A stretch of DNA of 64,000 nt, from positions 12,314 through 76,313 of the forward strand of contig CANQZC010000004.1 of assembly GCA_947628235.1 (NCBI GenBank), read 5' to 3'. A model generated the notes under the pieces. The model made no database searches. It saw only the letters and a list, made by a program, of their open reading frames with translations, and was not told the DNA's origin. The translations under genes were made by a program, and so were the position numbers. This document shows, in pieces, positions 4,327 to 44,174 of this stretch; within the stretch, counting starts at the first letter, position 1; each line of letters begins with the position of its first letter. The DNA is from an uncultured Bacilli bacterium (GTDB lineage Bacteria > Bacillota_I > Bacilli_A > RF39 > UBA660).

Positions 4327-4341
4327 GTGAATAAGAAAAAT

Positions 4342-8160: not shown

Positions 8161-8165
8161 AAAAT

Positions 8166-9026: not shown

Positions 9027-9069
9027 TAAAAAGTAAAAAGAAGAATGAATAAAAAGGCTTGGTGAATAT

Positions 9070-10395: not shown

Positions 10396-10413
10396 TAGAA
10401 AAGGAGGAAAAAT

Positions 10414-14467: not shown

Positions 14468-14492
14468 CTTTAATATAATCAGAGGTGATATT

Positions 14493-15275: not shown

Positions 15276-15285
15276 GAGGACTAAT

Positions 15286-15813: not shown

Positions 15814-15867
15814 CTACTTTTCAATTGATAAAAAAAATAGTATAATGACTTTGAAGGAGTGTATGTT

Positions 15868-16266: not shown

Positions 16267-16283
16267 CTAGCAGGAGGTTACTA

Positions 16284-17381: not shown

Positions 17382-17387
17382 AGATTT

Positions 17388-17416
17388 ATTGACAAACAAA
17401 AATAGGTATAGTATAA
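17388..17416 (+). promoter_or_regulatory. Consensus sigma-A promoter: TTGACA, 17 nt spacer, TATAAT
   Basis: Perfect hexamers can be read directly. A GAGGAGG RBS lies 6 nt before the P4 ATG. Confidence 0.55.
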
Positions 17417-17441
17417 TTATTATAATTAGAGGAGGAAGAAA

Positions 17442-17831
17442 ATGTTACAAGTTTTAGCAAATATTGATACAAATTTAACTTACACTTGTGGAGACATTGG
17501 AATGAGTTTTAATGGGATGCTTCCATATGTTGTATCTATGATCGTTTTGATTATCAAGATCGTAGTACCAATTTTATTAATTATCTTTGGTATGTTAGAT
17601 TTGGCAAAAGCAGTTATGGCCCAAAAAGAGGATGAGATTAAGAAAGGTCAACAAACTTTCATTAAAAGACTTATTGCTGCTGTTATTGTATTCTTTGTAA
17701 TTACTATTGTTCAAATGATTATTAGTTTCGTATCAAATGATAATGATAGTATTGCAAGTTGCTTTAAATGCTTTGTTAACGGTGATGCTAGTGCATGTAC
17801 ACCAGATTCATCAACACAAGTTGGATTCTAG
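17442..17831 (+). CDS. Hairpin-family protein P4 with no cleavable N-terminal signal peptide; candidate major pilin-like subunit
   Basis: Motif GMLDLAKAVMAQKEDEIKKGQQTFIKRLI; SCFKCFVNG. It has its own consensus promoter upstream and two terminators downstream. Confidence 0.6.
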   Translation: MLQVLANIDTNLTYTCGDIGMSFNGMLPYVVSMIVLIIKIVVPILLIIFGMLDLAKAVMAQKEDEIKKGQQTFIKRLIAAVIVFFVITIVQMIISFVSNDNDSIASCFKCFVNGDASACTPDSSTQVGF

Positions 17832-17937: not shown

Positions 17938-20073
17938 ATGGAATATATAGTAAAGATTTTAAGAACATTATTTTTCCACATAGATCGTGTTGTTTATGAA
18001 GGAATTGGAAGTGTTTATGATTTGTTGTTAAGAATAGCTAGAACAACTATTCTTAGTGACGATATGATCGGTGATTTTAGTGAGAGAATTTATGCCCTTA
18101 TTGGGATTTTTATGCTATTTAAGATTAGCATATCTCTCATTACATATGTTTTAAACCCGGACGAGTTTGTTGACAAGGAAAAAGGATTCTCTTCTATCAT
18201 AAAAAGAGTCGTTATTTCCCTCTTTTGCTTAGCTCTTGTTCCATACGGCTTTAAAGAACTATTTAGTTTGCAAACCATTTTATTAGAGGACAATACTTTG
18301 GCAGCTATATTTTTCGGCGATATTGATGATAGCGCCTATAAAATTGATACTGCGGGAGATAAAATAAAATTTATTTTGATGTATACATTCTTTCAACCAA
18401 ACTATCAGGGACTCTATGAAAATGAAGGTAATACTAAACTAGCAAGTTGCGCAATTACTTATGAATTTGAAGAAGTCTCTGGCTCTAGTCAGGGTAGAGT
18501 CAAGAAAAATGACGATGGCGCTTTTATGCTAAATCAAGAATGTTTCGGAACTTATAATGCAGATAGTCATGAATATGTACCATCAACTCCAGATACAAGT
18601 GCGCTTAATAGTGATTCTGATTATGGATCATATTGGGATGATAAAGATCTTTACCAAACTTATGCACAGGGTGTTGCTAGACAGAATTTTTACTTAATGT
18701 TTAGACACAATATAGCAATGGCTGAAAGAGGGAAAGATAAAGGTCTATATCTAGTAGATTATATGGCACCACTTAGTACAGCCGTTGGAGTAGCTGTTCT
18801 TTGGGTTTTAATTTTATTCTGTATTGATGTTGCTGTTCGTAGCGTAAAATTATCATTCTATCAGTTAATCGCGCCAATTCCAATCTTATCTTATGTAGAT
18901 CCTAAGAGTAAAGATGGAATGTTTACTAAATGGCTAAAACAAGTTGGAACAACTTTCTTAAGTCTATTTATGAGGTTAATTGCTTTATATTTAGCAATAT
19001 ACTTAATCTCTGAAGTTTCTGAATCAGGAATCAGAGATGTTATAACAGGAGAAAGAGTAACTGACTGGTGGGTACAAATCTTTGTTATCATCGGTGTGTT
19101 AATGTTTGCAAAACAATTACCAAAGATTCTTGAAGATACTTTAGGAATTAAGGGGACTGGTGATTTTACATTAAATCCATTAAAGAAGCTAGAATCTATT
19201 CCAGGTGGAAAAATGTTATCTGCTCCAGTTAAAGCAGTCGGAAATCTAGGAAAAGGTATTGCACGTGGAGCAACCTTAGGTGTTGGAGCAGCAGCTGGTG
19301 TAGGAATTGCAGGATTAGTAACTGGTCAAGGACTTCGTGGCGGCGCTATGGGAAAAGCTTTATTAGGTGCTGCTAGAGGAGAAAAATTTGGTAAAAACTT
19401 TGCAACTTCTTATGGAGCTGGACGAGCTAGAAAGAAAGAATTGGATCAGATGAAAGCAGATGGTGTTAGTGCAAGCCAAGTTAGAGGCGAGAAATTTTAT
19501 AATGCTTTCCATGGTGAAACCAAAGCAGAACATGTACAACATGCAGTAGATACAGCAAAAGCAATTCAAAGTAGATATGAATCTTATGAAAAAACAGCAG
19601 TAGGTGTCGATTCTTATGCAAAATACGCAGATAAACAAGCTAAGGCAGCTGCGGCTAGAGGTGATTTTGAATGGCAAAGAACTTGGGAGGACATTCGTGA
19701 TGACAGAATAAAAGAAATTCATACGAAAAATGGTGAAATTTCTACTTCTAAAAATGTAAGTGATTCATCATTCTTTGTAACGGATGCACATGGAACCGTT
19801 GATTATAGTCGTAGACTTGACAAAACTGGTGTAGAAGAAGGAACAACTCAGGTAAATGCAGCCTTGGCAAACTTAGCACATAGCATGACGCAACTTGCAA
19901 CTCAGTTCAACGAACAATATTCAACAGTGGCTGGATATTCTAAAATTGATGGAACTAAGGATCCAAAGGGTATGAAAAATGAGGCTCTTGGTGCTCAACA
20001 ATCTATTGAAACTAACTCTGCAAATACAACTATAAACGATGTTGCAAAATATACTGGCGGTTCTAAAAAATAA
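17938..20073 (+). CDS. VirB6/ConG/TcpH-like polytopic membrane protein with a Gly/Ala-rich hydrophilic C-terminal region
   Basis: It is 711 aa with 5 or more TM segments spread over the first 400 aa. It lies upstream of VirB3-like and VirB4 genes. Confidence 0.45.
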   Translation: MEYIVKILRTLFFHIDRVVYEGIGSVYDLLLRIARTTILSDDMIGDFSERIYALIGIFMLFKISISLITYVLNPDEFVDKEKGFSSIIKRVVISLFCLALVPYGFKELFSLQTILLEDNTLAAIFFGDIDDSAYKIDTAGDKIKFILMYTFFQPNYQGLYENEGNTKLASCAITYEFEEVSGSSQGRVKKNDDGAFMLNQECFGTYNADSHEYVPSTPDTSALNSDSDYGSYWDDKDLYQTYAQGVARQNFYLMFRHNIAMAERGKDKGLYLVDYMAPLSTAVGVAVLWVLILFCIDVAVRSVKLSFYQLIAPIPILSYVDPKSKDGMFTKWLKQVGTTFLSLFMRLIALYLAIYLISEVSESGIRDVITGERVTDWWVQIFVIIGVLMFAKQLPKILEDTLGIKGTGDFTLNPLKKLESIPGGKMLSAPVKAVGNLGKGIARGATLGVGAAAGVGIAGLVTGQGLRGGAMGKALLGAARGEKFGKNFATSYGAGRARKKELDQMKADGVSASQVRGEKFYNAFHGETKAEHVQHAVDTAKAIQSRYESYEKTAVGVDSYAKYADKQAKAAAARGDFEWQRTWEDIRDDRIKEIHTKNGEISTSKNVSDSSFFVTDAHGTVDYSRRLDKTGVEEGTTQVNAALANLAHSMTQLATQFNEQYSTVAGYSKIDGTKDPKGMKNEALGAQQSIETNSANTTINDVAKYTGGSKK

Positions 20074-20093
20074 TAAAAGGGGTGTGAAAAAAT

Positions 20094-20426
20094 ATGGGAC
20101 AATATTTAATACCGGCTAACTCGAAAAAATCCATGCTAATATTAGGTGTATTTAATCAACTTGACTTATGGATATTTCTAGTTGGATTACTCATTTCGTT
20201 AGTATTACTATTAATACTTCCAGTGGACCAATTGCCGTATGCAATTACGGCAATTGCCCCTGGTGCATTTTGTGCATTCTTGGTAATGCCAATACCAAAC
20301 TATCACAATGTGCGTACTTTTTTTAGAGTAGCATTTGTATTTTATACAACTAGACAACATTTTGTATGGAAAGGATGGTGCTTTAATAGTGGCGAAGACG
20401 GCGAGAAGCAAGTATACAGAAGCTGA
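20094..20426 (+). CDS. VirB3/PrgI-like small two-TM protein
   Basis: It is 110 aa with two hydrophobic helices and sits immediately upstream of VirB4. Confidence 0.4.
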   Translation: MGQYLIPANSKKSMLILGVFNQLDLWIFLVGLLISLVLLLILPVDQLPYAITAIAPGAFCAFLVMPIPNYHNVRTFFRVAFVFYTTRQHFVWKGWCFNSGEDGEKQVYRS

Positions 20427-20934
20427 TGTTCCTGTAAAAAGCATTACGAATGGTACTATTTTACTAGATAATGGTCAAAAGGTTACTGGTGTTAAAATTA
20501 TGCCTAGAAATATCTTTATCTTGGAACCAGCAACGCAGAATGCCATTATTACTAACTTAAAAACAGTATTCAATGTTATCGATTTTGAATTCTGGATTAT
20601 TGTTGCTGATAGACCAGTAGATATTAATGTATATCTTTCTCAATTGCAATTACTATATAACACAACCACTGATCCTGCCCGTAGAAAGATTATTAACGAA
20701 GATATCAATAAAGCAAATATGTTTGCTGCTAATAATGTAGTTGATACAGAATACTTCTTAGTTTTTAAAGAGAAAGATAATGAACTTATCAATAAGAGAA
20801 TTAGAAACTTAATTGGAAACTTTGCAAATGCTGGATTAACGGCATTCCAAACAACCAATGACGATTTAAGAATGATTTTAGACAACTTCTTAAATGGTGG
20901 TATGACAACAGAATTTGGGACGGTGTTATCATGA
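20335..20934 (+). CDS. VirB4 N-terminal-domain-like protein encoded as a separate ORF; start uncertain (the ATG at 20335 overlaps the previous gene; a GTG at 20389 follows AAGGATGG)
   Basis: Its 199 aa plus the next ORF's 595 aa add up to a typical VirB4 length, with Walker A about 440 aa from the combined start. Its stop overlaps the next start in ATGA. Confidence 0.4.
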   Translation: MYFIQLDNILYGKDGALIVAKTARSKYTEADVPVKSITNGTILLDNGQKVTGVKIMPRNIFILEPATQNAIITNLKTVFNVIDFEFWIIVADRPVDINVYLSQLQLLYNTTTDPARRKIINEDINKANMFAANNVVDTEYFLVFKEKDNELINKRIRNLIGNFANAGLTAFQTTNDDLRMILDNFLNGGMTTEFGTVLS

Positions 20935-22718
20935 TGGATGTTAGAAGCCAAATTGCTCCTAAAGGCTTGGAGTTTAAACCTGCTTCTTTTGTAATAAGTG
21001 ATAAATATGCAACCATCTTAACGGTTATTGGATATCCTAAATATATTTATCCTGGATATTTATCATCTTTAACATCTATGTCAGGTATCAAATTAGTTAT
21101 TAAAAATATCCCACTTCCTTTTAGCTCTATTCAAAAAATGTTAAACAAGGAAATTGCGGATTTAAAACAAAGATATCAAGATGAACATGATAGAACGATT
21201 CAAGAGCGTATTAGACAAGACTACGACTCTTTGGAACAATTCGTTTCTGAGTTAGCTGCTAGTCAAGCAAAAATCTATGATTTTCAAATGCATATTATGA
21301 TTACAGCCAATTCTGAAGATGAATTAACGGTAAAAAAATTACAAGTAAGAAATTATTTGGAAGCAATGGAGATGAGAGCAATCCCACTTCGCTTCGAACA
21401 AGAAAAAGTATTAAAATCTATGTTAGCAATCTATCCTAAACAGGATATTGAAGATAGAATTGGAACTCCAATTCCAGCGCCAACGATTGCTGCTATGTAT
21501 CCATTTATTTTTGATAGTATTAAGGACCCAGGACTTTCTACTTTATTAGGGGTAGACTTTTCTGGTGGAGTTATTTTGTTTAATCAATTCTTATATCAAA
21601 TTAAGAAGGAGCACAATCGAAATAACGCTAATATGATTATCCTTGGTACTTCTGGTAGTGGTAAATCTACTGCTGCTAAACTATTACTTAGATCACATCT
21701 TCGTAATAACAATCAAATTGTTGTTATTGACCCTGAAGGGGAACTTGAAGATATGTGTAAACTCTATAGTGGAGACTTTATCAGTTTAGGTAAAGGTGGA
21801 GATTTCGGTATGATTAATCCCCTTGAAGTAGTTATGGATGCTGATGAAGAAGAGATTAAGCAAGGACTAGGATACACAACTTTAACGAGAACTTTACAAT
21901 CTGTAAAAGCATTCTTGAAGTATTATGATCCAACAACAGAAGAAGATGTTACCAATATGTTTAGTGAGATTCTTCAGGAAACTTATCGAAGATTTAACAT
22001 TAACTTTGAGACAGACTTTACAAAGTTGACATCTGAAGATTATCCAACTTTAAAAGATGTTTACGCAACGATTAAAGGAAAAATCTTATCTATGCCAGAA
22101 AGAACACAAGAAAGAGATGTTTTGGAAAGACTAGAGTTAAAGATTCGTCCACTTATCAAGGAATTAAGATATTACTTTGATGGACATACAACAATTCATT
22201 CTAATAGTGATTTCATTGTATTTAACATTAAGGAGTTAATGAATTCTGATACAAATATTAGAAATGCATTATTCTTCAATGTTCTTAAGTTTGCATGGAG
22301 TTTAACTCTAGATGCTTCTCATAATACGGTATTAATGGTTGATGAGGCACATGTATTGTTAAGTAATCAAAATGCCTTAGGTGCGGATTTCTTAGCGCAA
22401 ATTCAAAGACGTGCTAGAAAATATAACACAGGAACCATTATTATTACACAACAACCAACCGATTTCTGTGATCCAGCCGTATTTGTTCAAGGAAAAGCAA
22501 TTTTTGATAACGCTTCTTATTATTTAGCAATGGGATTAAAGAAGCAAGCAGCTGAAGATTTAGCTCGTTTAATTGATTTAAATGAAAGTGAAATTGACAG
22601 TATTAAGAGATATGGTCAAGGAGAAGCATTATTCATATGCGGTTCAAGACGCATGAGAATTAATATTGTTGTAACAGATGAAGAATTAGAGTCTTTCGGT
22701 AAAGGCGGAGGACTATAA
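20931..22718 (+). CDS. VirB4-family type IV secretion ATPase (ATPase domain portion)
   Basis: Walker A ILGTSGSGKSTAAKLL; Walker B region VLMVDEAH; a C-terminal region typical of VirB4, PrgJ, TcpF and TraE. Confidence 0.8.
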   Translation: MMDVRSQIAPKGLEFKPASFVISDKYATILTVIGYPKYIYPGYLSSLTSMSGIKLVIKNIPLPFSSIQKMLNKEIADLKQRYQDEHDRTIQERIRQDYDSLEQFVSELAASQAKIYDFQMHIMITANSEDELTVKKLQVRNYLEAMEMRAIPLRFEQEKVLKSMLAIYPKQDIEDRIGTPIPAPTIAAMYPFIFDSIKDPGLSTLLGVDFSGGVILFNQFLYQIKKEHNRNNANMIILGTSGSGKSTAAKLLLRSHLRNNNQIVVIDPEGELEDMCKLYSGDFISLGKGGDFGMINPLEVVMDADEEEIKQGLGYTTLTRTLQSVKAFLKYYDPTTEEDVTNMFSEILQETYRRFNINFETDFTKLTSEDYPTLKDVYATIKGKILSMPERTQERDVLERLELKIRPLIKELRYYFDGHTTIHSNSDFIVFNIKELMNSDTNIRNALFFNVLKFAWSLTLDASHNTVLMVDEAHVLLSNQNALGADFLAQIQRRARKYNTGTIIITQQPTDFCDPAVFVQGKAIFDNASYYLAMGLKKQAAEDLARLIDLNESEIDSIKRYGQGEALFICGSRRMRINIVVTDEELESFGKGGGL

Positions 22719-22741
22719 AATTTTAGCGAGTAGGTGAATCT

Positions 22742-24763
22742 ATGAATAATAAGCCAAATAACGGTGGCGGTGGAACCCCATCGTTATCACCTTCTGTGAA
22801 GGAAAGAGATTTAGAGAGTCAAGGGAAAAATTTGATGGAGGGAAAAGCTCGTGCTGTTACTCCTCCTCCTATTCCTAAAAGTAATCCAAGTAGTTCCAAT
22901 GCATCTTTACCTAAGCAGGGTGGAATTCCTAGTCAAGAAAGGGTAGGTTCTAAGGAAGGTATTGGCAGTCAAGGAGGACTGCCACCCAGAGAAAGCATTA
23001 ATAGTGGTGCTGGAACTCCAGCTGCACATAATGGACAAGGTGGGGGAGTTGCTGCAGGTGGAAAATCTAATCCACAAGCTCAGGCTTTAAAAAATAGAGT
23101 GGCTTCTGCTGCTCTTCAGGCGGCAGGAGTACCTAAGGCTGTTAGTGATATGGCTGTCAATTCAAAACTTGGTAAAAAAGCTATGACGGCGATGCAAGAC
23201 CCTGCTAAAGCGGCTCTTAATGGTGTAAAAAATGTAGGAAAAAGTGAAGCTGAAAAGGATGCTGCTGAAAAAGAAGAGGAAGAAAAAGAAAAGGAAAAAA
23301 CAACAGGCGGAGTTACTTTGAGGGTACCTCTTTCCGTAAAACTTACTATTTTCTTAGGAATTTTACCTTCTTTTTGCTTTATTATCATTTTTATGATGAT
23401 TATTGTTTCTTATGTAGCCGATGAAAAAGCATTTAATATTTTCATGGGTAAAATTGTAGGAGATAAAGATGCTAGCGATATATATGATTTCAAAGAAGAA
23501 ATGGGTATGGGTGGTACTCTAGACGATATTGGTATGGGTACTGGTGGAATTACTTTTGATGAATTCTTAAATAGATATCAAAATTTAGGAAATATTTATG
23601 AATATTTTGATTGTGAATCTAAAGAAGAATGCTTAGAGAGAGACGAAGTAAAATTTTATATCAAAGTCAATGATATTATGCTTCGTTACTATCATAAATA
23701 TAATGGTATTAATTTAGACTGGGAGTTGTTAATGTCAACCGTATTAAGTCTAGACATTGATGTGAAAGAAATGTTTAAAGAACTATGGCATTCTTATAAC
23801 TATGATGATGTTGAAAATTATGAAATCTTAATGGATTTAGATTGGGATTATGATTATAAAAAAATTCCTGGGTATGATTATTTAAGCCCTAGCGATTATC
23901 GCTATGATTTACAGATACTCGCGAAAAATATGGTTACGAAAACGACTACTCAGACTTGTACAAAATTAGTAAGAAATGAAGATGGTTCTACTTCTACCGT
24001 AGTAACGAAAACAAGAACAGATACAGATATCGAAGATATGTATCTTCAACCAGGACAACCATATTATTTAAAATGCGATGCTGGAGAAACTTATCATATT
24101 TCTAGTAATTACCGGTTAGATATGGATAAATATGATGAATTTTTATCTGAATACTTAGAGAAAAAATTATATTTGCCTGAAACGGCAGATGATAGTTATA
24201 TTCCAGATGAAAATGGTCAAATCACAATTGATCATGTAACAGGAGATAGTTTATCTGCTAAAATGGTTAATTTAGCCCTTGCTCAACAAGGAATAGAGGG
24301 TAGTTATGAACACAACGGTGATAATAATGTCATTTATAATACTTGGTATTATGGAAGAGAAGTTAGTGGATCAGCTTATCCTTGGTGTGCAGCTTTCGTA
24401 TCTTGGGTAGTAGCGCATACCGAACATGATGGTACTCAGTTATTAAGTATTTTAAATCATAAATCTGCATCTGTGCAGAATTGGGCCAGTTATTTTCAAA
24501 ATACTTCTACATTACAGCTTAAAAATTCTTCCTATTTAGGAGGTAATTACACACCAAAACAAGGAGATATGATTTTCTTCTCTTGGAAAGGTGATAATGG
24601 TTGTAGTAATACTGGAATCAGCACCATGGATCATATTGGTATTGTCGTTGAAGTACAAGGAAATAATGTTATTACTATCGAAGGAAATACTGCCAATAAG
24701 GTAGCAACCAGAACTTATGCGTTAGATAGTTGTGAAATTACAGCCTATGGGGTTTGGTACTAA
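22742..24763 (+). CDS. Membrane-anchored peptidoglycan hydrolase with a C-terminal CHAP domain (functional analog of VirB1, TcpG and CwlT)
   Basis: A 190 aa G/P/S/A-rich N-terminal region is followed by one TM. The C-terminus has the CHAP Cys (YPWCAAFVSW) and His (DHIGIVVEV) motifs. Confidence 0.65.
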   Translation: MNNKPNNGGGGTPSLSPSVKERDLESQGKNLMEGKARAVTPPPIPKSNPSSSNASLPKQGGIPSQERVGSKEGIGSQGGLPPRESINSGAGTPAAHNGQGGGVAAGGKSNPQAQALKNRVASAALQAAGVPKAVSDMAVNSKLGKKAMTAMQDPAKAALNGVKNVGKSEAEKDAAEKEEEEKEKEKTTGGVTLRVPLSVKLTIFLGILPSFCFIIIFMMIIVSYVADEKAFNIFMGKIVGDKDASDIYDFKEEMGMGGTLDDIGMGTGGITFDEFLNRYQNLGNIYEYFDCESKEECLERDEVKFYIKVNDIMLRYYHKYNGINLDWELLMSTVLSLDIDVKEMFKELWHSYNYDDVENYEILMDLDWDYDYKKIPGYDYLSPSDYRYDLQILAKNMVTKTTTQTCTKLVRNEDGSTSTVVTKTRTDTDIEDMYLQPGQPYYLKCDAGETYHISSNYRLDMDKYDEFLSEYLEKKLYLPETADDSYIPDENGQITIDHVTGDSLSAKMVNLALAQQGIEGSYEHNGDNNVIYNTWYYGREVSGSAYPWCAAFVSWVVAHTEHDGTQLLSILNHKSASVQNWASYFQNTSTLQLKNSSYLGGNYTPKQGDMIFFSWKGDNGCSNTGISTMDHIGIVVEVQGNNVITIEGNTANKVATRTYALDSCEITAYGVWY

Positions 24764-24766
24764 GAG

Positions 24767-25456
24767 GTGCTTATGAAAAAAATAATTGGACTATTTGTAT
24801 TAACCCTTTTTATTAGTGGGTGTAGTAGTGAATATAATGTAAAAATTACTTCTGATAAGATAGAGGAAAATATCAACATTGTTGTGGATAAAAGTTTAAT
24901 AGGAGAAGATGCGGGAAATCCAAATGACCCTGTCAATCCAACAGAATCAGACGATCAAATTACCCCATTTATCAAAGGAGATCAATATCCATTTTCTAAT
25001 AATACTTCTCAAAAATATGAAAAAGTGGTTACTGAAGATAAAGATAATTATTATATTCAATTAAATTATTCTTTTCTTCCATCTCAATATGGAAACTCAA
25101 CTGCACTTTCTAGTTGCTTTGAAAAACATGAATTTGTAGAAAATGAGAAGTATTATGAAATCAAATTGGGAGGAGCTTTTTACTGTTTATATTCTGATGC
25201 TTTAACCATTAATTTAAATACTCCAAATATTGTTAAAGAAAACAATGCAGAACAAGTGAATGGCGATACCTACACTTGGACAATCAATAATCAAAATGTT
25301 CGAAATACAGATATTTCTATTAAAATTATGAAGACAACCAAATGGCAACAATATCTTATTTATGGAATTATGATTGGTGTTATAGTAATTGTTGTGATTG
25401 GTGCTCTTGTTTTAGCGAATATATTTGCGAATAAAGAATCTCGTAATAAAATCTAG
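24767..25456 (+). CDS. Lipoprotein with a C-terminal TM anchor
   Basis: Lipobox FISGCSS; a C-terminal hydrophobic helix followed by KESRNKI. Confidence 0.5.
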   Translation: MLMKKIIGLFVLTLFISGCSSEYNVKITSDKIEENINIVVDKSLIGEDAGNPNDPVNPTESDDQITPFIKGDQYPFSNNTSQKYEKVVTEDKDNYYIQLNYSFLPSQYGNSTALSSCFEKHEFVENEKYYEIKLGGAFYCLYSDALTINLNTPNIVKENNAEQVNGDTYTWTINNQNVRNTDISIKIMKTTKWQQYLIYGIMIGVIVIVVIGALVLANIFANKESRNKI

Positions 25457-25466
25457 GAGGTGCTAT

Positions 25467-26855
25467 ATGAAAAAGAGAATGAAAAAAATTTTTATAGCCA
25501 ATTTAGTGATATGTCTTTGTCTATTTCATATAGCAAATGTTTTTTCCTATGAATACATAGATTCAAAGAATAAAACACCAGTGGAGCAAAAGAAAAAAGA
25601 AATTTATCAAATGCAGCAGATGTATCAGTTCCTTTTAGGGGAAGACGAGTCTAACTACATTATGAATTATAGTGGAGCATGTAGTACGGTTACTGTCGAA
25701 GGTAGTGGTACATATACACTAGATCAGTATATTGCTGGAGTTGTTAAGGCGGAGGTAGGATCTGAATCTGATAAGCCAGAACTTTTAAAAGCACAGGCAA
25801 TTGCCGCTAGATCTTTTGTTATTGCTAGTATGGGAGAAGATACTTTGACCTGTACCGTTCCTAATGGTCAAAGTTTCCAAGCATTCTCTGAAGTAAGTGA
25901 TGGAAACTCAGCAGATGCTCCTTACATTAAAGCCGCTCAAGAAACTTCTGGAATGGTTATTATGAAAGATGGAAAAGTAGCGCTTACGCAATACTTATCT
26001 TATCCAAATAGTAAATTCTGTTATGAAGTGGATGGAAAGTGGCATATTAATTTTCAAAAATTTGGAAGTGATTCAAGCACTGCTTGGGAATGGGTTGGAC
26101 CTTCTAAAGCAGAAGTATTAGCTGCTAATAACTGGGCTCCTCAGTCAGGAGCACCTTCTACTACTCACCATTTTGGAATGAGTCAAATTGTAGCTGGATG
26201 GATGGCAGCAAATGGCAAAACATATCAAGAAATTCTAGAGACTTTCTATGGGGAAAGTATTGGTATGTTAAGCGACGGTAATTACACTGGAGAATTAGAG
26301 TTTGTAGATTCTGATTTCGGTCAAATTACTTATTGGAACCAAGGAGATTTTGGTAATTATTACTATTCTTCTGATGTATCTACTCCTCAGTATAAAGGTT
26401 CTAGTGGAAAGTGGGCAACAATTGCTAGTCACGGTTGTGGTCCATCTTCTATGGCTATTATTTTATCTAGTTTTACGGGACAACAAATCTCTCCAATTAC
26501 GACGACACAACAAGTGTGTAAATTAGGAGGATGTACAAGTGGCGGTAGTACTTATGGTTCTCTTGCCCAACTTGCTAAACAATATGGATACAAAGCAGAA
26601 TTTGTTGGCAAAGATGGTAATCTTTCTAAGGTAACCAATGCCCTTGCTAGTGGAAATTCTTTAGTAGTAGCGCTTATGGGACCTGGAGTATTTACGAGTG
26701 GTGGTCACTATATTGTTCTTACAGGAACAAGATCTGATGGAATGGTATCTGTTGCTGATCCTGCAAGTAGAAAAAGAACACAACAAAAATGGTTTTCATT
26801 TAATTTAGTTGTTTCACAAGCAAAAGGTAGCGGATTCTTAATTGTTACTAAATAG
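25467..26855 (+). CDS. Secreted bifunctional cell-wall hydrolase: a SpoIID/LytB-like domain plus a C39-like cysteine peptidase domain
   Basis: The ATG at 25467 follows a TAGGAGGTG RBS. The SpoIID-type motif LLKAQAIAARSFVI is present. The C-terminus has GCGPSSMAIIL ... GGHYIVLTG, a Cys and His pair. Confidence 0.55.
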   Translation: MKKRMKKIFIANLVICLCLFHIANVFSYEYIDSKNKTPVEQKKKEIYQMQQMYQFLLGEDESNYIMNYSGACSTVTVEGSGTYTLDQYIAGVVKAEVGSESDKPELLKAQAIAARSFVIASMGEDTLTCTVPNGQSFQAFSEVSDGNSADAPYIKAAQETSGMVIMKDGKVALTQYLSYPNSKFCYEVDGKWHINFQKFGSDSSTAWEWVGPSKAEVLAANNWAPQSGAPSTTHHFGMSQIVAGWMAANGKTYQEILETFYGESIGMLSDGNYTGELEFVDSDFGQITYWNQGDFGNYYYSSDVSTPQYKGSSGKWATIASHGCGPSSMAIILSSFTGQQISPITTTQQVCKLGGCTSGGSTYGSLAQLAKQYGYKAEFVGKDGNLSKVTNALASGNSLVVALMGPGVFTSGGHYIVLTGTRSDGMVSVADPASRKRTQQKWFSFNLVVSQAKGSGFLIVTK

Positions 26856-26864
26856 GAGGAATTT

Positions 26865-27557
26865 ATGAGAAAAAAGTTAATCTTATTACTTTTATTGGTA
26901 ATGTTATGTTGTGGATGTGAGGCAAATTATACTTTAAAAATCAATGATGATTTAACGGTAGTGGAAACTATTAGCGCTACGGAAGGCCCTGAATTCTTTA
27001 GTGAATATCCAAAGTCTTCTGTACAATGGGTAGTTGGTTCTGTTTTTATAGAACCAAACCTAGAGTATATTAATAAAATAGGGTACGATATTAATTACAT
27101 TACTTCCAAAGAAGAGGGAGGAGCTAAACTTATTGGAAAATATAGTAGTTTAGACGAATATAAAGAGAAATCTGAATTTCCTAATCAAATAGATGGGGAA
27201 TGGAATTATACGAAAGATGGAGATCTTATTACCCTTTCTTTAAAAGGAAGATTTTCCGCTGATGAGCAAGATCAAGATGGAAGATATAAAATAGATAATG
27301 GAACTATCAGTATTACGGTTCCCTTTACCGTAACCAATCAAAACGCTGATAGCGTAAATAAAGAAACAAATACCTATACTTGGCATTTTGATAATGAAAA
27401 GGAGAAAGAGTTAACGATTACTTTTGACTCTTCTAGTTTAAAGAAAGATGAATTTCCATATATCGTAATTGCTATTGTAGTTGTTTTAGTTATCATTATT
27501 TTCTATGGAATAATGATAGCAATTGATAAAAATAAGCGTAGAAATAAATTAGATTAA
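26865..27557 (+). CDS. Lipoprotein with a C-terminal TM anchor (architecture paralogous to the ORF at 24767)
   Basis: Lipobox LCCGCEA; a C-terminal hydrophobic helix followed by KNKRRNK. Confidence 0.5.
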   Translation: MRKKLILLLLLVMLCCGCEANYTLKINDDLTVVETISATEGPEFFSEYPKSSVQWVVGSVFIEPNLEYINKIGYDINYITSKEEGGAKLIGKYSSLDEYKEKSEFPNQIDGEWNYTKDGDLITLSLKGRFSADEQDQDGRYKIDNGTISITVPFTVTNQNADSVNKETNTYTWHFDNEKEKELTITFDSSSLKKDEFPYIVIAIVVVLVIIIFYGIMIAIDKNKRRNKLD

Positions 27558-27575
27558 TAGAGAGTAGGTGATACC

Positions 27576-29783
27576 TTGAAATTAAAATTTCGTGCTGAGA
27601 CAAAGGATGTAGTTATCTTTTGCATCTTTTCTGCAGTTCTTTTCTTTCTTATTTGCTTAGCTGTATCGAATGTAGGAATTTTTATTGCGGAAAATGAATT
27701 TGTTGGTTTCAATATCATTCCTGCTTTAACAAGATATTTACCATTTACCTTGATGCTTTTTATTATTTCTATTATAGCTATGTTCTTAAGTGTTCAGTCT
27801 TGGTTTATTGAAAGAGAAGAAGGTATTGGTATTCAAATTGGTGCCAAAAAGGAAAAAAATTATTCTAGATGGGCCAAAGATAAAGAAATTCAAAATGGAC
27901 TAGATGTAGTAGCCGTTGATCCTCTAGCGCCTAAGACTGATGCTGCTGGTATACCATTAATTATGACACCTAAAAAAGTTTGGGTAGATAATGGTGGATA
28001 TCACAACCTAGTTATCGGTTCTACTGGTGCTGGTAAAACACAGACTACTGTACTTCCTATGGTAAATTTACTTGCAAAACATGATGAGTCTATGATTATT
28101 ACAGACCCTAAAGGTGAAATTTATGAATTAACTTCTAACTATTTAAAAAGTTTAGGATACAATATCGTTCTTTTGAACTTCCGTGATCCTCAGCAAGGAA
28201 ATAGTTGGAATCCAATGTATTTACCATATTCTTTATATAAACAGCATAAAATTGATAAATCTATCGAGTTATTGGAAGACTTAGCAGCCAATATCTTAAA
28301 GGACCCTTCTGCGAAGGGACAAGACCCATTCTGGGAAAATACATCAGCAGATTACTTTTCAGGATTGTCTTTTGCGCTTTTTGAAGATGGTGATGAGTCT
28401 CAAATTAACTTAAATAGTATTAACTTAATGACGACAGTAGGAGAAGAGAAACTAGCTAATACTACCTATATTAAAGAGTATTTTAGTTTTAAAGATCCTG
28501 CTAGTACAGCTTATATTAAAGCATCATCAACATTGATGGCACCAAATGAAACAAAAGGATCTATCCTTTCTGTATTTAAACAGAGAGTTCAATTATTCGC
28601 ATCTCGTACCAATTTATCTGAGATGCTTGCCAATAATGACTTTGATATGCGAGATATTGGTCGAAAAAAGACGGCTGTATTTATCGTTATTCAAGATGAA
28701 AAAACAACTTATCATACATTAGTTACGATTTTCTTGAAGCAATGCTATGAAACACTTATTTCTGTAGCGCAAGAAAGTGGAGGAAAACTTCCTCATAGAA
28801 CTAATTTTATTCTAGATGAGTTTGCTAACATGCCACCATTAAAAGATGTTACTACGATGGTTACAGCGGCTCGTTCTAGAAATATTCGTTTTACGTTTAT
28901 TATCCAGAACTTCTCTCAATTATATGAAGTATATGGAAAAGAAAATGGTGAAACAATTAAAGGTAACTGTGGTAACATCGTTTACTTAATTAGTACAGAG
29001 TTAAGTGCTTTGGAAGAGATTAGTAAAATGTGTGGAGAAGTAAAATCAAAAGAAAAAGAAAAGACTTCCTCTACGCCACTGGTTACTGTCAGTGATTTAC
29101 AAAGAATGGAACAATGGCAAACAATTATCCTTCGTATTCGAACGATGCCATTTAAGACTAAATTAACTCCTAACTTTAAGATGGATTGGGGACATAATTT
29201 CCCTAAAGCAGATTATCCACAAAGAGAGGAAATTCCTGTTCAAATCTTTGATTTAAAGGGATTTGTAGAGAAGAAAAGAGAAGAGAAAATTAATAATTTA
29301 TTAGGAAATTCCGGAACTCCTGGAGGAGGAGTTCCAACTCCAATTCCAACTCCTGGAATGCCAACTTCTCAGTTCCCACCTACGCCATTTGGAGCAGGAA
29401 CACCAAGCAACCCTTTCTCTTCTAGACCATTCCCACCAAAGGCTGGCATGACGAATGCTGCGGAAAAGAAACCTGCTGGTGGAGGAATTAATGTAGAAGA
29501 CTTAGTTAAGAGAATAGATGCGAAAATTGCTGAATTAGAAGAAGAAGAAAAGAGAGAAAAAGAGGCACAAGGTGGTGGAATTCCAAATCCAGAGATACCA
29601 AATCCAGAGATACCAAATCCAGAGATACCAAATCCGGAAATTTCAACACCTATGGAAACACAGCCACAAATGCCTGTTTCTTCTCCTGTCACGCCAACTA
29701 GAGAGCCAGAAAAACCTAAAGAGACAACTGCTCCAAAAGTTAGCGATGATGAATTCTTTGATGATTTCTTTGGAGATGATTAA
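27576..29783 (+). CDS. VirD4/TraG/TcpA-like type IV coupling protein with a Pro-rich repetitive C-terminal tail
   Basis: Two N-terminal TMs; Walker A LVIGSTGAGKTQT; Walker B region ILDEFANMP. The start is a TTG, 5 nt after TAGGTGA. Confidence 0.75.
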   Translation: MKLKFRAETKDVVIFCIFSAVLFFLICLAVSNVGIFIAENEFVGFNIIPALTRYLPFTLMLFIISIIAMFLSVQSWFIEREEGIGIQIGAKKEKNYSRWAKDKEIQNGLDVVAVDPLAPKTDAAGIPLIMTPKKVWVDNGGYHNLVIGSTGAGKTQTTVLPMVNLLAKHDESMIITDPKGEIYELTSNYLKSLGYNIVLLNFRDPQQGNSWNPMYLPYSLYKQHKIDKSIELLEDLAANILKDPSAKGQDPFWENTSADYFSGLSFALFEDGDESQINLNSINLMTTVGEEKLANTTYIKEYFSFKDPASTAYIKASSTLMAPNETKGSILSVFKQRVQLFASRTNLSEMLANNDFDMRDIGRKKTAVFIVIQDEKTTYHTLVTIFLKQCYETLISVAQESGGKLPHRTNFILDEFANMPPLKDVTTMVTAARSRNIRFTFIIQNFSQLYEVYGKENGETIKGNCGNIVYLISTELSALEEISKMCGEVKSKEKEKTSSTPLVTVSDLQRMEQWQTIILRIRTMPFKTKLTPNFKMDWGHNFPKADYPQREEIPVQIFDLKGFVEKKREEKINNLLGNSGTPGGGVPTPIPTPGMPTSQFPPTPFGAGTPSNPFSSRPFPPKAGMTNAAEKKPAGGGINVEDLVKRIDAKIAELEEEEKREKEAQGGGIPNPEIPNPEIPNPEIPNPEISTPMETQPQMPVSSPVTPTREPEKPKETTAPKVSDDEFFDDFFGDD
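29583..29642 (+). repeat. Four tandem 15-bp repeats, CCAAATCCAGAGATA, encoding (IPNPE)x4
   Basis: Three copies are identical and one has diverged. They lie in frame inside the VirD4-like tail. Confidence 0.8.
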
Positions 29784-31007: not shown

Positions 31008-31023
31008 GAGGAGGAAAATATAA

Positions 31024-32974: not shown

Positions 32975-33033
32975 TGGAAATTTAATTCTTATTTTGCTAT
33001 AATAAAGTTGTAATAATACACGAGGAGGAAAGT

Positions 33034-33540
33034 ATGGAAATAATTAAGGAAAATAAGAAGATGATTATTTTTTTAGTAGTAATCCTTATATTGATTATAG
33101 GAATACTAGTGCTTAGTTTATTTGAAAAATCTGATAGTAGTAATTTGATGGTAAATTGTAGTAGAACTGTTCATTCAAAAACATCAGAAATTACACAGAG
33201 TATAGAAATATATGATTATATTTCTTATAAAACGATGATTCTAAAAATTGTTGTAGGAATAGATCAAGATGTAAATCAGAATATGTTAGAAAATTATCTA
33301 GCGATTATTGAATTTCAAACAAAACAAAAAATACAGTCAGCGGCTGGCGGAGAAATTCCTAAAGATGTGGTAGTTAGTTCAAAAATTGAAGGAAACAAGG
33401 CTATTATTTCTATTGAAAACAAACTTACCGAAGAGAATGCGGTAGAGATGTACCAATTATATGATACGAATTTTTATGAGATGACAAAAGAAGAGATGAA
33501 AAATTATTTTATTGAGGATGGTTTAACATGCGAAAGTTAG
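33034..33540 (+). CDS. Membrane-anchored hypothetical protein
   Basis: An N-terminal TM is followed by a hydrophilic domain. A TGcTATAAT extended -10 lies at 32995..33003. Confidence 0.4.
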   Translation: MEIIKENKKMIIFLVVILILIIGILVLSLFEKSDSSNLMVNCSRTVHSKTSEITQSIEIYDYISYKTMILKIVVGIDQDVNQNMLENYLAIIEFQTKQKIQSAAGGEIPKDVVVSSKIEGNKAIISIENKLTEENAVEMYQLYDTNFYEMTKEEMKNYFIEDGLTCES

Positions 33541-34823
33541 TTGAAAAAAGTTTATTTTTCTTATTAGCATTTGTAATATGCTTTGAAACAGTTTTAGCAG
33601 CACCAGTTTCTTGTGAATATCCACAATTAGATATGACTTTAACATATTATGATGGTCAAGATAAGCCATCAATCAGTTATTCTAATTGGGCACAGTCTGA
33701 TTGGTATGTTAATTTATTAGCTGTAAAACTTGGACAGCATAAATATGCCGAAGATGAAGTTCGTATTGATCAAAACTTATACAGACAATTCCAAGGAGAT
33801 ACTTGTCCTGATAAAATGTATGTTTGTGAATATACAGAGTGGAGTGCTCAATTACCAAGCTTACTTAGTTTAGGACAAGATATCGCCGGTGTTTTAGCGC
33901 TTATTCCGGCTCTTTTTGGGGCTGATACACTTGGATTTTCTGATGAAATGCTAGAAGAAGGTTGGTCTCTTTTTACACTAGGAAAATCTGAATTATATGT
34001 TATGAATTATGAATCTTATGAAAACCATGAATATCGTATCTACGAAGGTGGTCTTGTATCAGATGATTTAGATATGGCTTATATGGAAGGATATGAAGGC
34101 TGTAATGGTGATGGCGGAGGACTTTGGTGGCTGCTAGGAGGAGTTTGTGGTATTCTGTGGTCTGCTATCGATGGAGTTATTGGAGAAACAATAATTGGTG
34201 ATGGAATCGATGTTCTATTTTATAAAAATTTTACTTGTAAAAAAGCGAATTATCAAGGGGAAAATTCTACTGTAGATGTTAACTGCTCTTTTTTGACAAC
34301 AAAAACCCATGAGTATCAAACTTATGTGAGTGAGTATAGCAGTTGCGGAGATGATTCTTGTAGAGCAAATGCGGTTAGTAAGTTAAATAGAAAACAATCA
34401 GAACTTGAAGCTTTGTGCAAAAAAGTTCTTCGAAATTACGAATATAATGAAACTCAAACTGAATGTATTAATAATTGCATTTCTTTGCGTAAGACATTAA
34501 ATAAATATAAAGAAGGAACCGATTTGCATATGGATTTTGAAGATACAGATTCAAATAGTTGCCGATTCTCCGATAGAATGGCAGCATGGTTAATGCGAAT
34601 TGTATCTTGGGTAAGATATATTGTACCTGCTATTATTATCATTTTAACGATTTTAGATTTTATTAAGGCAATTGCTGCTGATAGTGAAGATGAGATTAAA
34701 AAGGTCAGTGGTAGATTTGTAAAACGACTAATTGTCGCAGTCATTATTTTCTTACTTCCACTTATTCTAGAATTTTTACTTGGAATATTTGATATATCAA
34801 CCAATAATTATTGCTTAAAATAG
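33528..34823 (+). CDS. Large secreted Cys-rich protein P6: unique ectodomain fused to a C-terminal hairpin-family (pilin-like) domain
   Basis: Signal peptide ending VLA. The C-terminal 80 aa (WLMRIVSWVRYIVPAIIIILTILDFIKAIAADSEDEIKK...RLIVAVIIFLLP...NNYCLK) match the small hairpin proteins. Confidence 0.6.
   Translation: MRKLVEKSLFFLLAFVICFETVLAAPVSCEYPQLDMTLTYYDGQDKPSISYSNWAQSDWYVNLLAVKLGQHKYAEDEVRIDQNLYRQFQGDTCPDKMYVCEYTEWSAQLPSLLSLGQDIAGVLALIPALFGADTLGFSDEMLEEGWSLFTLGKSELYVMNYESYENHEYRIYEGGLVSDDLDMAYMEGYEGCNGDGGGLWWLLGGVCGILWSAIDGVIGETIIGDGIDVLFYKNFTCKKANYQGENSTVDVNCSFLTTKTHEYQTYVSEYSSCGDDSCRANAVSKLNRKQSELEALCKKVLRNYEYNETQTECINNCISLRKTLNKYKEGTDLHMDFEDTDSNSCRFSDRMAAWLMRIVSWVRYIVPAIIIILTILDFIKAIAADSEDEIKKVSGRFVKRLIVAVIIFLLPLILEFLLGIFDISTNNYCLK
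34596..34823 (+). repeat. Near-identical dispersed repeat: the 3-prime ends of P6 and P7 (second copy at 35962..36189)
   Basis: Aligned by eye, the two copies are about 90 percent identical over about 225 bp. Confidence 0.7.
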
Positions 34824-34848
34824 ATAGACATCTCTATCTATTTTTTTT
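34820..34848 (+). terminator. Rho-independent terminator: TAGATAGA, loop CATC, TCTATCTA, T8
   Basis: A perfect 8-bp stem that includes the P6 stop codon, followed by a T-run. Confidence 0.6.
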
Positions 34849-34878
34849 AAATATGATATAATTATGTTAGGTGATGTT

Positions 34879-36189
34879 ATGAAACAAACTCGGATTTATC
34901 TGCTTTTTATTTGCTTTTGCCTCTTTTTTGGGGGGAAAAATGTATTGGCAAAAGAGGTTTCAAAAACTTGTAAGTATACTTATGTAAATGAATTGACAGA
35001 AAATGGTAATACGGATACAGTTGCTGCTAACCGAGGAGGAACTATCACTTTAAGTGTATATACAGATGGTTCCCAAGATGGGCAAGGAAAAAGTAATGGT
35101 ACTTTTTTAGCTGAAAATTTTGGTGGGCATGAAGAAATTTTAAACTGGGGAAAATCAGATAATGATGCTCCTGATATCAAAGGAACTTCTTGCCCAGATT
35201 ATATTGGTGTTATTGTTCAAGGCCTTGGAGATCGTAAGTGGTATGGATTTACCTCTAGTGGTTTATCTAGTTATGGACCTAAAGTTGCTTCTCATGATAA
35301 CAGTAATTCTATGGCAGTTTTAAAAAATGATAGTTTGGAAGATCCAACATATACTTGCTATTATCCTGATGAAAATAATTCTTATTATAGTATTACAGTT
35401 GATACTAATCAAAAGACTTTGACAGCCAAGTCTACTTTAGCAAGTTTAAATATTTTTTACTCAGTAAGTGATCAATTACAAGAGAGTTGGTTCTCTGAGG
35501 AACGAGGAACAGATAAGTGCTTACCTACTGTTGCTTGTTCGACAGATTCATTAACTATTAGTTATTCTTATATTTTTAATGACTCTATGGAAGCAGCTGC
35601 TGCCGGATATAAAAATTGTGAATTACAAAAATGCTCTGGTGATGATTGTGATGAAACGAAAGAGTATTCATGCATTACATATACGAAGTATTTAAATGAT
35701 ATAGATTCTTTATATTCACAAATAAAAAGCGCAACTGGAGATACAGCTAATTTGTATAAACAAGTTCATGATAAAGAAGAAACATTGGCAACCTTATGTC
35801 AAAGTGTCATGGCTAATTATACTTATGCAGAAAACTGTGTAAAAGCTTGTTTACAAATGGAAAAAGATATAAATTCTAGAAAAGAAAAATATGGAATTGA
35901 TGTAATCACGAATCCTACTAATAGTTGCAGCATTTCTGTAAGATTAGCAACATGGTTAATGAGAATTATATCTTGGGTAAGATATATCGTACCTGCTATT
36001 ATTATTATCTTAACAATTCTAGATTTTATTAAAGCTATTGCTGCCGATAGTGAAGATGAAATGAAAAAAGCCAGTGGAAAGTTTGTAAAACGACTAATTG
36101 TTGCAGTCATTATTTTCTTACTTCCACTTATTCTAGAATTCTTACTTGGAATATTTGATATATCAACCAATAATTATTGTTTAAAATAG
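34879..36189 (+). CDS. Large secreted Cys-rich protein P7: a different ectodomain fused to the same C-terminal hairpin domain
   Basis: The ATG at 34879 lies 5 nt after AGGTGA. It has a signal peptide ending VLA. The last 225 or so nt are about 90 percent identical to the 3-prime end of P6. Confidence 0.6.
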   Translation: MKQTRIYLLFICFCLFFGGKNVLAKEVSKTCKYTYVNELTENGNTDTVAANRGGTITLSVYTDGSQDGQGKSNGTFLAENFGGHEEILNWGKSDNDAPDIKGTSCPDYIGVIVQGLGDRKWYGFTSSGLSSYGPKVASHDNSNSMAVLKNDSLEDPTYTCYYPDENNSYYSITVDTNQKTLTAKSTLASLNIFYSVSDQLQESWFSEERGTDKCLPTVACSTDSLTISYSYIFNDSMEAAAAGYKNCELQKCSGDDCDETKEYSCITYTKYLNDIDSLYSQIKSATGDTANLYKQVHDKEETLATLCQSVMANYTYAENCVKACLQMEKDINSRKEKYGIDVITNPTNSCSISVRLATWLMRIISWVRYIVPAIIIILTILDFIKAIAADSEDEMKKASGKFVKRLIVAVIIFLLPLILEFLLGIFDISTNNYCLK

Positions 36190-36214
36190 ATAGGAAACCC
36201 TATCTATTTTTTTC
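36186..36214 (+). terminator. Rho-independent terminator: ATAGATAGG, loop, CCTATCTAT, T-run
   Basis: A perfect 9-bp stem followed by TTTTTTTC. Confidence 0.6.
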
Positions 36215-36246
36215 TGTTTTATAGTATAATAGAATTGGTGAATAGT

Positions 36247-39496: not shown

Positions 39497-39508
39497 GGGT
39501 AGAAAAGT

Positions 39509-43727: not shown

Positions 43728-44174
43728 ATGAAAAAGTTCAGTATAGTTTTAGTAATGGTGGCAGTTCTATTACTTTGTCCATCTATGGTACATGCGATTG
43801 ACCCACTTCCTAGTCATACGACATATGTAGCTTGTGGAGATGCGAAGTCTATTCCTCAACCAGTTCCTCAGTTAACTAGTGTGGCATATACTTTAATTAT
43901 TATAGCAGTACCTGTCATTTTAATTGTTTTTAGTATTGTTACTCTGGTAAAGGCGGTTACAGCAGGTTCTCCTGATGAAATTTTAAAAGCGAGAGGTAAA
44001 TTAATTAAGAAGTTTATTGCTGCTGCTATTATTTTCTTTGTAGCAGGAATTACACAGTTTGTAGTTACGAAGGCAGCGGATGATTCCGAAGGAAATAATA
44101 TTGCTTCTTGTATTAGTTGTTTTCTTTATTATGATGGATGTACGGAATCAGAGCCACCAGAGGCTTACCGATAG
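43728..44174 (+). CDS. Orphan secreted hairpin-family protein P5 (divergent pilin-like paralog)
   Basis: Signal peptide ending VHA. ACGDAKSIPQPVP is followed by two hydrophobic helices flanking AGSPDEILKARGKLIKKFI, then SCISCF. The upstream sequence AAATATGATATAAT is shared with P7. Confidence 0.55.
   Translation: MKKFSIVLVMVAVLLLCPSMVHAIDPLPSHTTYVACGDAKSIPQPVPQLTSVAYTLIIIAVPVILIVFSIVTLVKAVTAGSPDEILKARGKLIKKFIAAAIIFFVAGITQFVVTKAADDSEGNNIASCISCFLYYDGCTESEPPEAYR

Follow-up and report, generated by a model that had tools for sequence, protein, structure and literature searches.

Two tandem genes and the anatomy of their products

The window analysed here is a 64,000-nucleotide (nt) stretch of contig CANQZC010000004.1 from an uncultured Bacilli bacterium, and our subject is a pair of tandem genes within it, P6 and P7, which encode large cysteine-rich proteins ending in the same pilin-like hairpin. 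An earlier note, made from the letters of this DNA, had read the pair as unrelated ectodomains joined to a common anchor and diversified in the manner of cassettes. We find that P6 and P7 are paralogues in a large unnamed family whose anchors evolve in concert within genomes while the ectodomains diverge, and that the family accompanies a chromosomal type IV secretion system (T4SS). The elements of the gene pair are the following:

32975..33003, + strand: promoter-like site before orf168 and P6 (TGGAAA, 17-nt spacer, TATAAT, with TG)
33034..33540, + strand: orf168, 168 amino acids (aa), with an N-terminal membrane anchor and 2 Cys
33528..34823, + strand: P6, 431 aa, class A, in tandem with P7; signal peptide aa 1-24, class-specific ectodomain 25-231, helical Cys stalk 232-344, pilin-like hairpin 345-431
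34554..34847, + strand: direct repeat copy 1, the gene-conversion tract, which reaches beyond the P6 stop into the terminator
34560..34820, + strand: P6 hairpin module, comprising Cys345, transmembrane helix 1 (TM1), loop AADSEDEIKKVSGRFVKR, transmembrane helix 2 (TM2) and Cys429
34817..34848, + strand: P6 intrinsic terminator, a 12-bp stem AAAATAGATAGA/TCTATCTATTTT and then a T run (-11.1 kcal/mol, z = -3.9)
34854..34862, + strand: extended -10 box TGATATAAT, the likely P7 promoter as read from the letters (a consensus promoter scan did not list this box)
34879..36189, + strand: P7, 436 aa from its most likely start, class B; signal peptide aa 1-24, beta-rich ectodomain 25-243, stalk 244-349, hairpin 350-436; the open reading frame (ORF) opens at 34864 (441 aa)
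35920..36213, + strand: direct repeat copy 2, P7 hairpin and terminator
36183..36217, + strand: P7 intrinsic terminator (-13.3 kcal/mol, z = -4.4)

The two tandem forward-strand ORFs described in the earlier note, Cys-rich and with signal peptides, are present at 431 and 441 aa, and each mature protein contains 14 Cys. The length of 441 aa for P7 is that of the ORF; its start is most likely at 34879, giving 436 aa, because the ATG at 34864 directly follows the extended -10 box and the AGGTGA ribosome-binding site lies downstream of that ATG, between it and 34879. The 436-aa product is identical to a public protein (P0016). Promoter-like elements stand upstream of P7 and upstream of the orf168-P6 pair, the latter matching 10 of 12 consensus positions (a consensus match only). 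P6 and P7 are each complete with their own terminator, an AT-rich 12-bp hairpin overlapping the stop codon and leading into a T run; the near-identical terminators reported previously both fold well. The 3' end of orf168 and the start of P6 overlap by 13 nt, and homologues of orf168 were detected directly upstream of class A genes in five related loci (L006, L007, L008, L009 and L037) and nowhere else, which suggests that orf168 and a class A (P6-type) gene form a two-gene unit.

Both proteins begin with a hydrophobic signal sequence carrying a cleavage motif (VLA|A or VLA|K), and hydropathy and sequence together define at the other end two strongly hydrophobic helices around a charged loop, AADSEDE(I/M)KK.SG.FVKR. 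The mature sequence ahead of this hairpin, ectodomain plus stalk, is about 320 aa in both. AlphaFold2 models built from 40-sequence alignments (predicted local distance difference test, pLDDT, of 77.8 for P6 and 84.5 for P7) follow a common plan: the signal helix leads into an N-terminal part rich in beta structure, which reaches to about residue 250, and after it come a Cys-bearing stalk of four helices (about 254-327 in P6, 266-337 in P7), a linker modelled with low confidence and, last, the long hairpin (helices 347-383 and 387-420 in P6, 351-388 and 392-425 in P7). The predicted topology places the large Cys-rich part outside the cell, in keeping with the surface exposure proposed earlier, and we consider it likely. 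C345, just before TM1, is invariant in every family alignment made, and both it and C429, after TM2, are invariant in a 37-sequence family alignment; an extracellular disulfide between them would probably join the hairpin's two outer ends. Since neither signal peptide has a lipobox, anchoring as a lipoprotein was discarded.

The P6 ectodomain also contains class A-specific hydrophobic helices rich in Gly and Trp, LPSLLSLGQDIAGVLALIPALFG and GGGLWWLLGGVCGILWSAIDGVIG (residues ~110-137 and ~197-222; 33855-33938 and 34116-34193), which are partly conserved among orthologues. P7 has none. The P6 helices look membrane-active.

Concerted evolution of the shared anchor

The gene ends, described earlier as about 90% identical, share 208 of 228 nt (91.2%) between 34596-34823 and 35962-36189, compared with 27.9 +/- 3.5% (maximum 41%) for random ungapped windows of P6 against P7. 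A repeat search recovers this as a single 294-nt direct repeat with a spacing of 1366 nt, whose copies are 88% identical and which goes on past the stop codon, through the 12-bp AT-rich hairpin and into the T run. At the protein level the C-terminal modules align as claimed, but homology is not limited to some 80 aa. It spans the last 200 aa (54% identity, E = 3e-53, BLASTP), made up of the helical Cys-bearing stalk (28% identity) and the hairpin (90-94%). Only the first ~230 aa of the two proteins are unalignable pairwise, and the mutually dissimilar N-terminal regions of ~330 aa in the earlier description hold for that part and not for the stalk.

For 49 family genes taken from 47 loci, the codons of the hairpin were aligned. 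Nine of 13 genomes have paralogues whose hairpins share 90-100% amino acid identity, with a synonymous difference (pS) of 0-0.36 in eight of the nine and 0.51 in the other, while hairpins from different genomes have a median identity of 52% and a median pS of 0.63 (5th percentile 0.48). The hairpins of P6 and of the CANQRL genes, for example, are 80-84% identical in amino acids, yet their pS is 0.80-0.85; between P6 and P7, pS is 0.62 in the stalk and 0.30-0.34 in the hairpin. Seven genomes have a common 5' boundary: between -270 and -235 nt relative to the stop codon, where the hairpin begins, DNA identity climbs from ~40-55% to at least 90%. Four genomes show this identity extending 30-55 nt into non-coding terminator DNA, and in CANRAT and CAJUTK the tract also takes in the stalk. 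In CAJUTK (L012/L013, CAJUTK010000001.1, a mouse gut metagenome-assembled genome, MAG), two class B genes 16 kb apart, one in the T4SS operon and the other in a slot before RNase R, are 100% identical across their final ~530 nt and keep 77-100% identity as far back as about -615 nt, and this pair is the most recent conversion event observed.

The likeness of the hairpins might alternatively stem from selection on the protein combined with codon bias, without any recombination, and such an origin would agree with the hairpin being the most conserved part of the family and with the biased codon use of an AT-rich genome. We strongly disfavour this explanation and regard it as very improbable. Protein-level selection alone is insufficient because synonymous sites are much less diverged within than between genomes at similar amino acid identity and because the identity reaches non-coding terminator DNA; nor would it account for copies that are fully identical at a distance of 16 kb. 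A recent fusion confined to this genome was also rejected, since genome-specific anchors recur in at least nine genomes. Repeated gene conversion of the 3' module after speciation is the parsimonious reading, because the ectodomain classes have cross-species orthologues while the anchors are genome-specific. Recombination, which the earlier note had invoked, does act here, but it homogenises the anchor within a genome instead of shuffling ectodomains.

Ectodomain classes and their turnover

A HMMER scan with the family profile against 1.84 billion representatives gave 7196 matches at E <= 1e-3, 3508 at E <= 1e-10 and 358 at E <= 1e-30. The family comprises at least 358 clusters (50% identity), the best 150 representatives are almost all 300-530 aa long, and the members inspected are all named 'hypothetical protein'. 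By BLAST, the N-terminal regions sort into class A (P6-type), class B (P7-type), class C and others. Full-length orthologues of P6 are 42-46% identical to it, while P7-type proteins and other classes match P6 in the C-terminal part only; the best orthologues of P7 are 65-69% identical. When the P7 ectodomain alone was used as the query, three fragments were returned and no anchor-free occurrence, although this is a weak test.

Several residues are invariant or nearly so across the classes: the CxY after the signal peptide (C29/Y31), the Cys of a CP motif (C93 in P6, C105 in P7), C237, C253, C297, C313 and C317. A comparison of classes A and B by hhalign, made with deeper profiles (of 63 and 52 sequences), places the second module of B (TCYY...KCLPTVAC) on the first module of A (CEY...CPDKMYVCEY) with E = 2e-4 and a probability of 46%, and class B against class C reaches a probability of 96%. 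The N-terminal regions of A and B are linked via intermediates at E < 1e-3, but not at 1e-5. The description 'unrelated ectodomains' is therefore not upheld, given the common stalk, the Cys framework and this weakly matching module. The ectodomains are probably highly divergent relatives with one disulfide framework in common, although the statistical support falls short of decisive.

The slot between DUF2238 and RNase R, in which P6 and P7 lie, holds different sets of these genes in different genomes: orf168, A and B in the window, B, C and B in CANQRL, two B genes in CANROB, B only in CAJUTK, and orf168 with A in several others. Between genomes in which VirD4, RmuC and RNase R keep 77-91% identity, the ectodomains retain 37-69%, and they thus diverge far more quickly than the genes around them. 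Whole genes could be deleted or duplicated by way of the 294-nt direct repeats, which would fit the one to three copies found in the slot.

These data bear directly on the proposal that ectodomain segments are swapped onto a constant anchor to give rapid antigenic or host-range variation, in the style of pilE/pilS. A constant 3' module with a sharp boundary, a slot that differs in class combination by species and fast-evolving ectodomains would all suit such a system. However, tblastn with both proteins detected only complete genes in the 64-kb window, with no silent, partial or truncated copies; both genes are complete transcription units, and the classes are old, with cross-species orthologues at 37-69% identity. 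No sign of switching appeared within species. The one other sample found for this species has the same P6-P7 arrangement and is 99.9% identical over 1598 nt. In one species-level cluster (P0021), variable columns are spread evenly, with 9.1 per 100 aa in the ectodomain, 11.0 in the stalk and 8.0 in the hairpin, although clustering at 90% identity would hide swapped variants. We consider a cassette system of this kind improbable. The classes are gained, lost or moved between species, and the locus is cassette-like only in this slower turnover of the DUF2238-to-RNase R slot.

Two scans of metagenomes for variants at the strain level gave no useful result. A 1863-nt sequence, L049 (European Nucleotide Archive, ENA, ERZ27249300), at first resembled a strain variant in which P7 is truncated; it matches window positions 33568-35165 with 99.9% identity and then switches abruptly to GC-rich foreign DNA, and it was rejected as a chimeric low-coverage assembly.

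The secretion locus and comparison with known systems

The window holds a Gram-positive-type T4SS core at 17938..29783 on the + strand, preceded by an array of small genes for the same hairpin:

14451..17831, + strand: small pilin-hairpin array of four genes (274, 175, 135 and 129 aa), with one unrelated 365-aa gene interspersed
17938-20073, + strand: VirB6-like gene (TrbL_4; pLS20_p028 and Mbov_0396 families)
20931-22718, + strand: VirB4, T4SS core
22742-24763, + strand: CHAP hydrolase, T4SS core
25425-26855, + strand: SpoIID/peptidase C39 protein, T4SS core
27576-29783, + strand: VirD4, CD1115 family, T4SS core
43728..44174, + strand: outlying pilin-hairpin paralogue, 148 aa (PF18895, E = 2e-5)

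The small-pilin array lies immediately upstream of the VirB6-like gene, the classical position of virB2, and a VirB3-like gene also belongs to the operon downstream of the small pilin genes. With the 148-aa paralogue, which stands ~7.5 kb beyond the island and has equivalents in L001, L009, L013, L018, L019 and L037, the window contains five smaller paralogues of P6 and P7, which agrees with the homology to small hairpin proteins seen earlier. Each has a Cys before TM1, one to three Cys after TM2 and an even number of mature Cys, and the 274-aa paralogue begins with a CxY...CP module.

The gene order VirD4, (variable genes), RmuC, DUF2238, slot, RNase R is kept in >20 species-level genomes, all of them MAGs of uncultured gut Bacilli (rabbit, mouse, human, goat and rumen), in which identity is 52-91% for VirD4 and 61-86% for RNase R. 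ScpA/ScpB border the island at one end and RNase R/SmpB at the other. The scanned window ORFs (up to ~47.5 kb) yielded no relaxase or integrase domain, nor did the Pfam tables precomputed for L001, L004 and L005. A mobile element (integrative and conjugative element, ICE) was rejected on the grounds of this conserved synteny and the lack of a detected relaxase; the T4SS is an old chromosomal system.

Several neighbouring features deserve mention. Directly upstream of the pilin array, 7726-12104 encodes DUF5411, an RcpC/CpaB-like protein, a PF00437 (T2SSE/VirB11-type) ATPase and two unannotated ORFs of membrane-protein size, in the same order as in L005; this could be a Tad-like pilus module or supply a VirB11-like ATPase to the T4SS. 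Between ScpA and this module, 1939-7719 contains ORFs of 533, 230 and 1130 aa, none of which matches Pfam and which may belong to the same island. Directly after VirD4, 29868-31299 encodes an acidic protein of 379 aa, whose gene contains a 33-nt tandem repeat (4.6 copies, WGEQAIQDVKD), and after it a DUF4176 protein. The acidic protein is 24-27% identical between species whose VirD4 is 85-91% identical, and it may be a secreted substrate with its partner protein. After RNase R, 38354-40855 holds two tandem CapA/PGA_cap-like paralogues, of which related genomes have one or two, one in L001 being fused to a GDSL lipase domain.

The hairpin is taken to be a pilin module on the basis of its Pfam match and its genomic context, no solved pilin being detectable. 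PF18895 (T4SS_pilin) is the sole Pfam match of P6 and P7, covers the entire 71-position model and matches 28 of 37 family members at E <= 1e-3 (best E = 3.1e-7). Together with the two long helices predicted by AlphaFold2, this supports the earlier description of the hairpin as pilin-like. P6 and P7 have the pilin layout, in which two hydrophobic helices separated by a short charged loop come after a signal peptide, but at 431 and 436 aa they are not essentially hairpin alone, as small pilins are. Neither protein has a Pfam match or a fold match to the VirB5/TraC family, and NCBIfam names neither them nor the small pilins. A profile match of the hairpin in the PDB was dismissed as noise from rhodopsin TM5-TM6, and the full-length profile matched nothing there.

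The large genes occupy three positions relative to the T4SS cluster with its VirB4 and VirB6: the slot before RNase R (the window, CANQRL, CANROB and others), directly after VirD4 (L001), and within the T4SS operon, with a small pilin gene on one side and the VirB6-like gene on the other (L005, JAAGKN; L012, CAJUTK). In the window they share one conserved island with the secretion genes, VirD4 is present in the fetched DNA of 28 related loci, and the family and the T4SS co-occur in all loci with enough flanking DNA. These observations must be set against the idea that P6 and P7 are generic secreted disulfide-rich envelope proteins, for instance spore- or wall-associated, whose anchor merely resembles PF18895 and which have no link to the T4SS. 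Sub-threshold PF18895 scores, the readiness of two-helix hairpins to attract spurious matches (rhodopsin, 7tm_1) and the housekeeping neighbours RmuC and RNase R would be expected on that account. The constant co-occurrence, the family members inside the operon of other genomes and the small paralogues in the virB2 position would not, and we judge it improbable.

We are inclined, with moderate confidence, to the reading that P6 and P7 represent a family of Sec-exported, disulfide-rich surface proteins that display a variable ectodomain on a stalk and a VirB2-like hairpin and serve the chromosomal T4SS, most likely as its ectodomain-bearing minor pilins or adhesins. The signal peptide would be cleaved and the ectodomain would remain outside the cell; the hairpin would insert with its charged loop in the cytoplasm, with the Cys before TM1 and after TM2 probably stapling its outer ends. 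The hairpin would then act as the module that hands the protein to the VirB6/VirB4 assembly platform along with the small pilins, and docking of this kind to the T4SS is likely. The large proteins could be minor subunits, at the tip or sparse along the structure, showing an adhesin-like domain, or they could be adhesins docked to the platform; their incorporation into a pilus-like polymer is speculative and, in our view, less likely than not. Repeated gene conversion keeps the 3' ends (the hairpin, often with the terminator) near-identical within a genome, and we propose that, as all paralogues must fit one machine, hairpin-limited conversion tracts are those retained.

A number of points weigh against this reading. 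PF18895 scores P6 at 24.5 bits (E = 2.8e-5) and P7 at 25.4 bits (E = 1.5e-5), just under the cut-off of 26.6, and no solved T4SS pilin was detectable by sequence profile (PDB) or fold search. In the window, P6 and P7 are 3.7 kb downstream of VirD4, with RmuC and other genes between. The tail with Cys429 has a pLDDT below 50, and the models neither support nor refute the disulfide staple. No homogenisation was seen in ERZ27317801 and CALVOZ (62-73% identity, saturated pS). Given the geometry of VirB2-type filaments, there would be no room for a 35-kDa domain on each subunit, and only minor incorporation is therefore plausible. To our knowledge, a pilus has never been seen in any Bacillota T4SS.

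The main competing explanation is that the large proteins are membrane-anchored accessory adhesins or wall-spanning parts that never polymerise, the hairpin being a mere anchor that possibly docks to VirB6. They would work at the cell surface, comparable to the separate adhesins that Gram-positive conjugation systems display. This agrees with the very large ectodomain and stalk (~320 aa), with the position of P6 and P7 outside the core operon in the window, and with Gram-positive T4SSs using surface adhesins without pili (PMC12102498, PMC12857230). A plain anchor, however, needs no pilin-type hairpin common with a four-gene small-pilin array, homogenisation that ends exactly at the hairpin boundary in many genomes would be left unexplained, and elsewhere the large genes stand between a pilin gene and the VirB6-like gene; we consider this explanation possible but unlikely. 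We give no greater weight to the boldest version of our own, in which the small-pilin array would build a VirB2-type pilus or a wall-spanning tube and the P6/P7-type proteins would be its interchangeable disulfide-stapled tip adhesins, with conversion keeping the assembly modules compatible. If true, this would be the first pilus-forming T4SS in Bacillota and a parallel to the essential T4SS of epibiotic Patescibacteria, hinting at an attached life that depends on a host or partner cell.

Returning to P6 and P7 as T4SS minor pilins or adhesins, the nearest known proteins are the pilins of the VirB2/TrbC/TraA type (PF04956, PF18895). These likewise have a signal peptide and two hydrophobic helices with a short charged loop, both ends lying outside, and their genes, like those of the P6/P7 family, adjoin VirB6, VirB3 and VirB4 genes. 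They are ~70-130 aa long, whereas P6 and P7 have 431 and 436 aa, with ~320 aa of disulfide-rich ectodomain and stalk before the hairpin. VirB2 and TrbC undergo head-to-tail cyclisation, in place of which P6 and P7, whose polymerisation is putative, have flanking conserved Cys. An assembly module combined with a bulky domain that sits at the tip and serves adhesion or the start of assembly is found in VirB5 and in the large minor pilins CofB/TcpB and GspK of type IV/II systems. The resemblance to P6 and P7, whose tip location is likewise putative, is one of concept only, as the folds and machines are unrelated.

In Neisseria pilE/pilS, silent cassettes diversify the variable region of one expressed gene. 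Both systems involve non-reciprocal recombination in a pilin gene family with conserved segments at the tract boundaries; here, in contrast, it is the constant region of several complete genes that is homogenised, and the 64-kb window has no silent copies. The locus offers a clean natural case of module-limited concerted evolution, in which the assembly module is homogenised while the display domain diverges.

As regards exposed pilin parts that vary, the nearest analogues are the multiple paralogues among the tandem VirB2 proteins of Anaplasma and in Bartonella Trw (PMC3556328; PMC12857230), whose variable parts are surface-exposed and for which a role in forming variable surface structures that interact with the host has been suggested. 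They differ in being small pilins, from intracellular pathogens that are Gram-negative, and in varying over short hypervariable stretches, in Anaplasma just before the N-terminal Cys and near the C-terminus (PMC3556328), whereas here whole folded domains differ and the hairpin is homogenised.

Gram-positive T4SSs are said in reviews of 2025 to lack VirB2 and VirB5, the only named exception being Patescibacteria, which have relaxase-less chromosomal T4SSs with arrays of 2-11 divergent VirB2-like pilins (PMC12857230, PMC12102498). In our literature searches, VirB2-like pilins in Firmicutes/Bacillota were undescribed beyond PMC12857230, PMC12102498 and PMC3556328. The present locus and its relatives in >20 species are at odds with the view of Gram-positive T4SSs without VirB2, as they form a conserved Bacillota T4SS with a pilin array and no relaxase detected. 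They provide concrete candidates for how a monoderm T4SS contacts its target, and the question of pilin-based structures in Gram-positive T4SSs becomes testable. The likeness to Patescibacteria lies in a monoderm host, a chromosomal system without a relaxase (none detected here) and a VirB2-like array; a locus with a PF00437 (pilus/secretion-type) ATPase adjoins the T4SS here, and in Patescibacteria a type IV pilus works alongside the T4SS (PMC12102498; PMC12857230). The host here, however, belongs to Bacillota (uncultured gut Bacilli with sporulation genes), and large ectodomain fusions and concerted evolution of the hairpin are undescribed for Patescibacteria, whose array members share <=54% identity (PMC12102498; PMC12857230). 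Overall, this system is a Bacillota counterpart of the Patescibacteria T4SS, to which ectodomain fusions and concerted evolution of the hairpin have been added.

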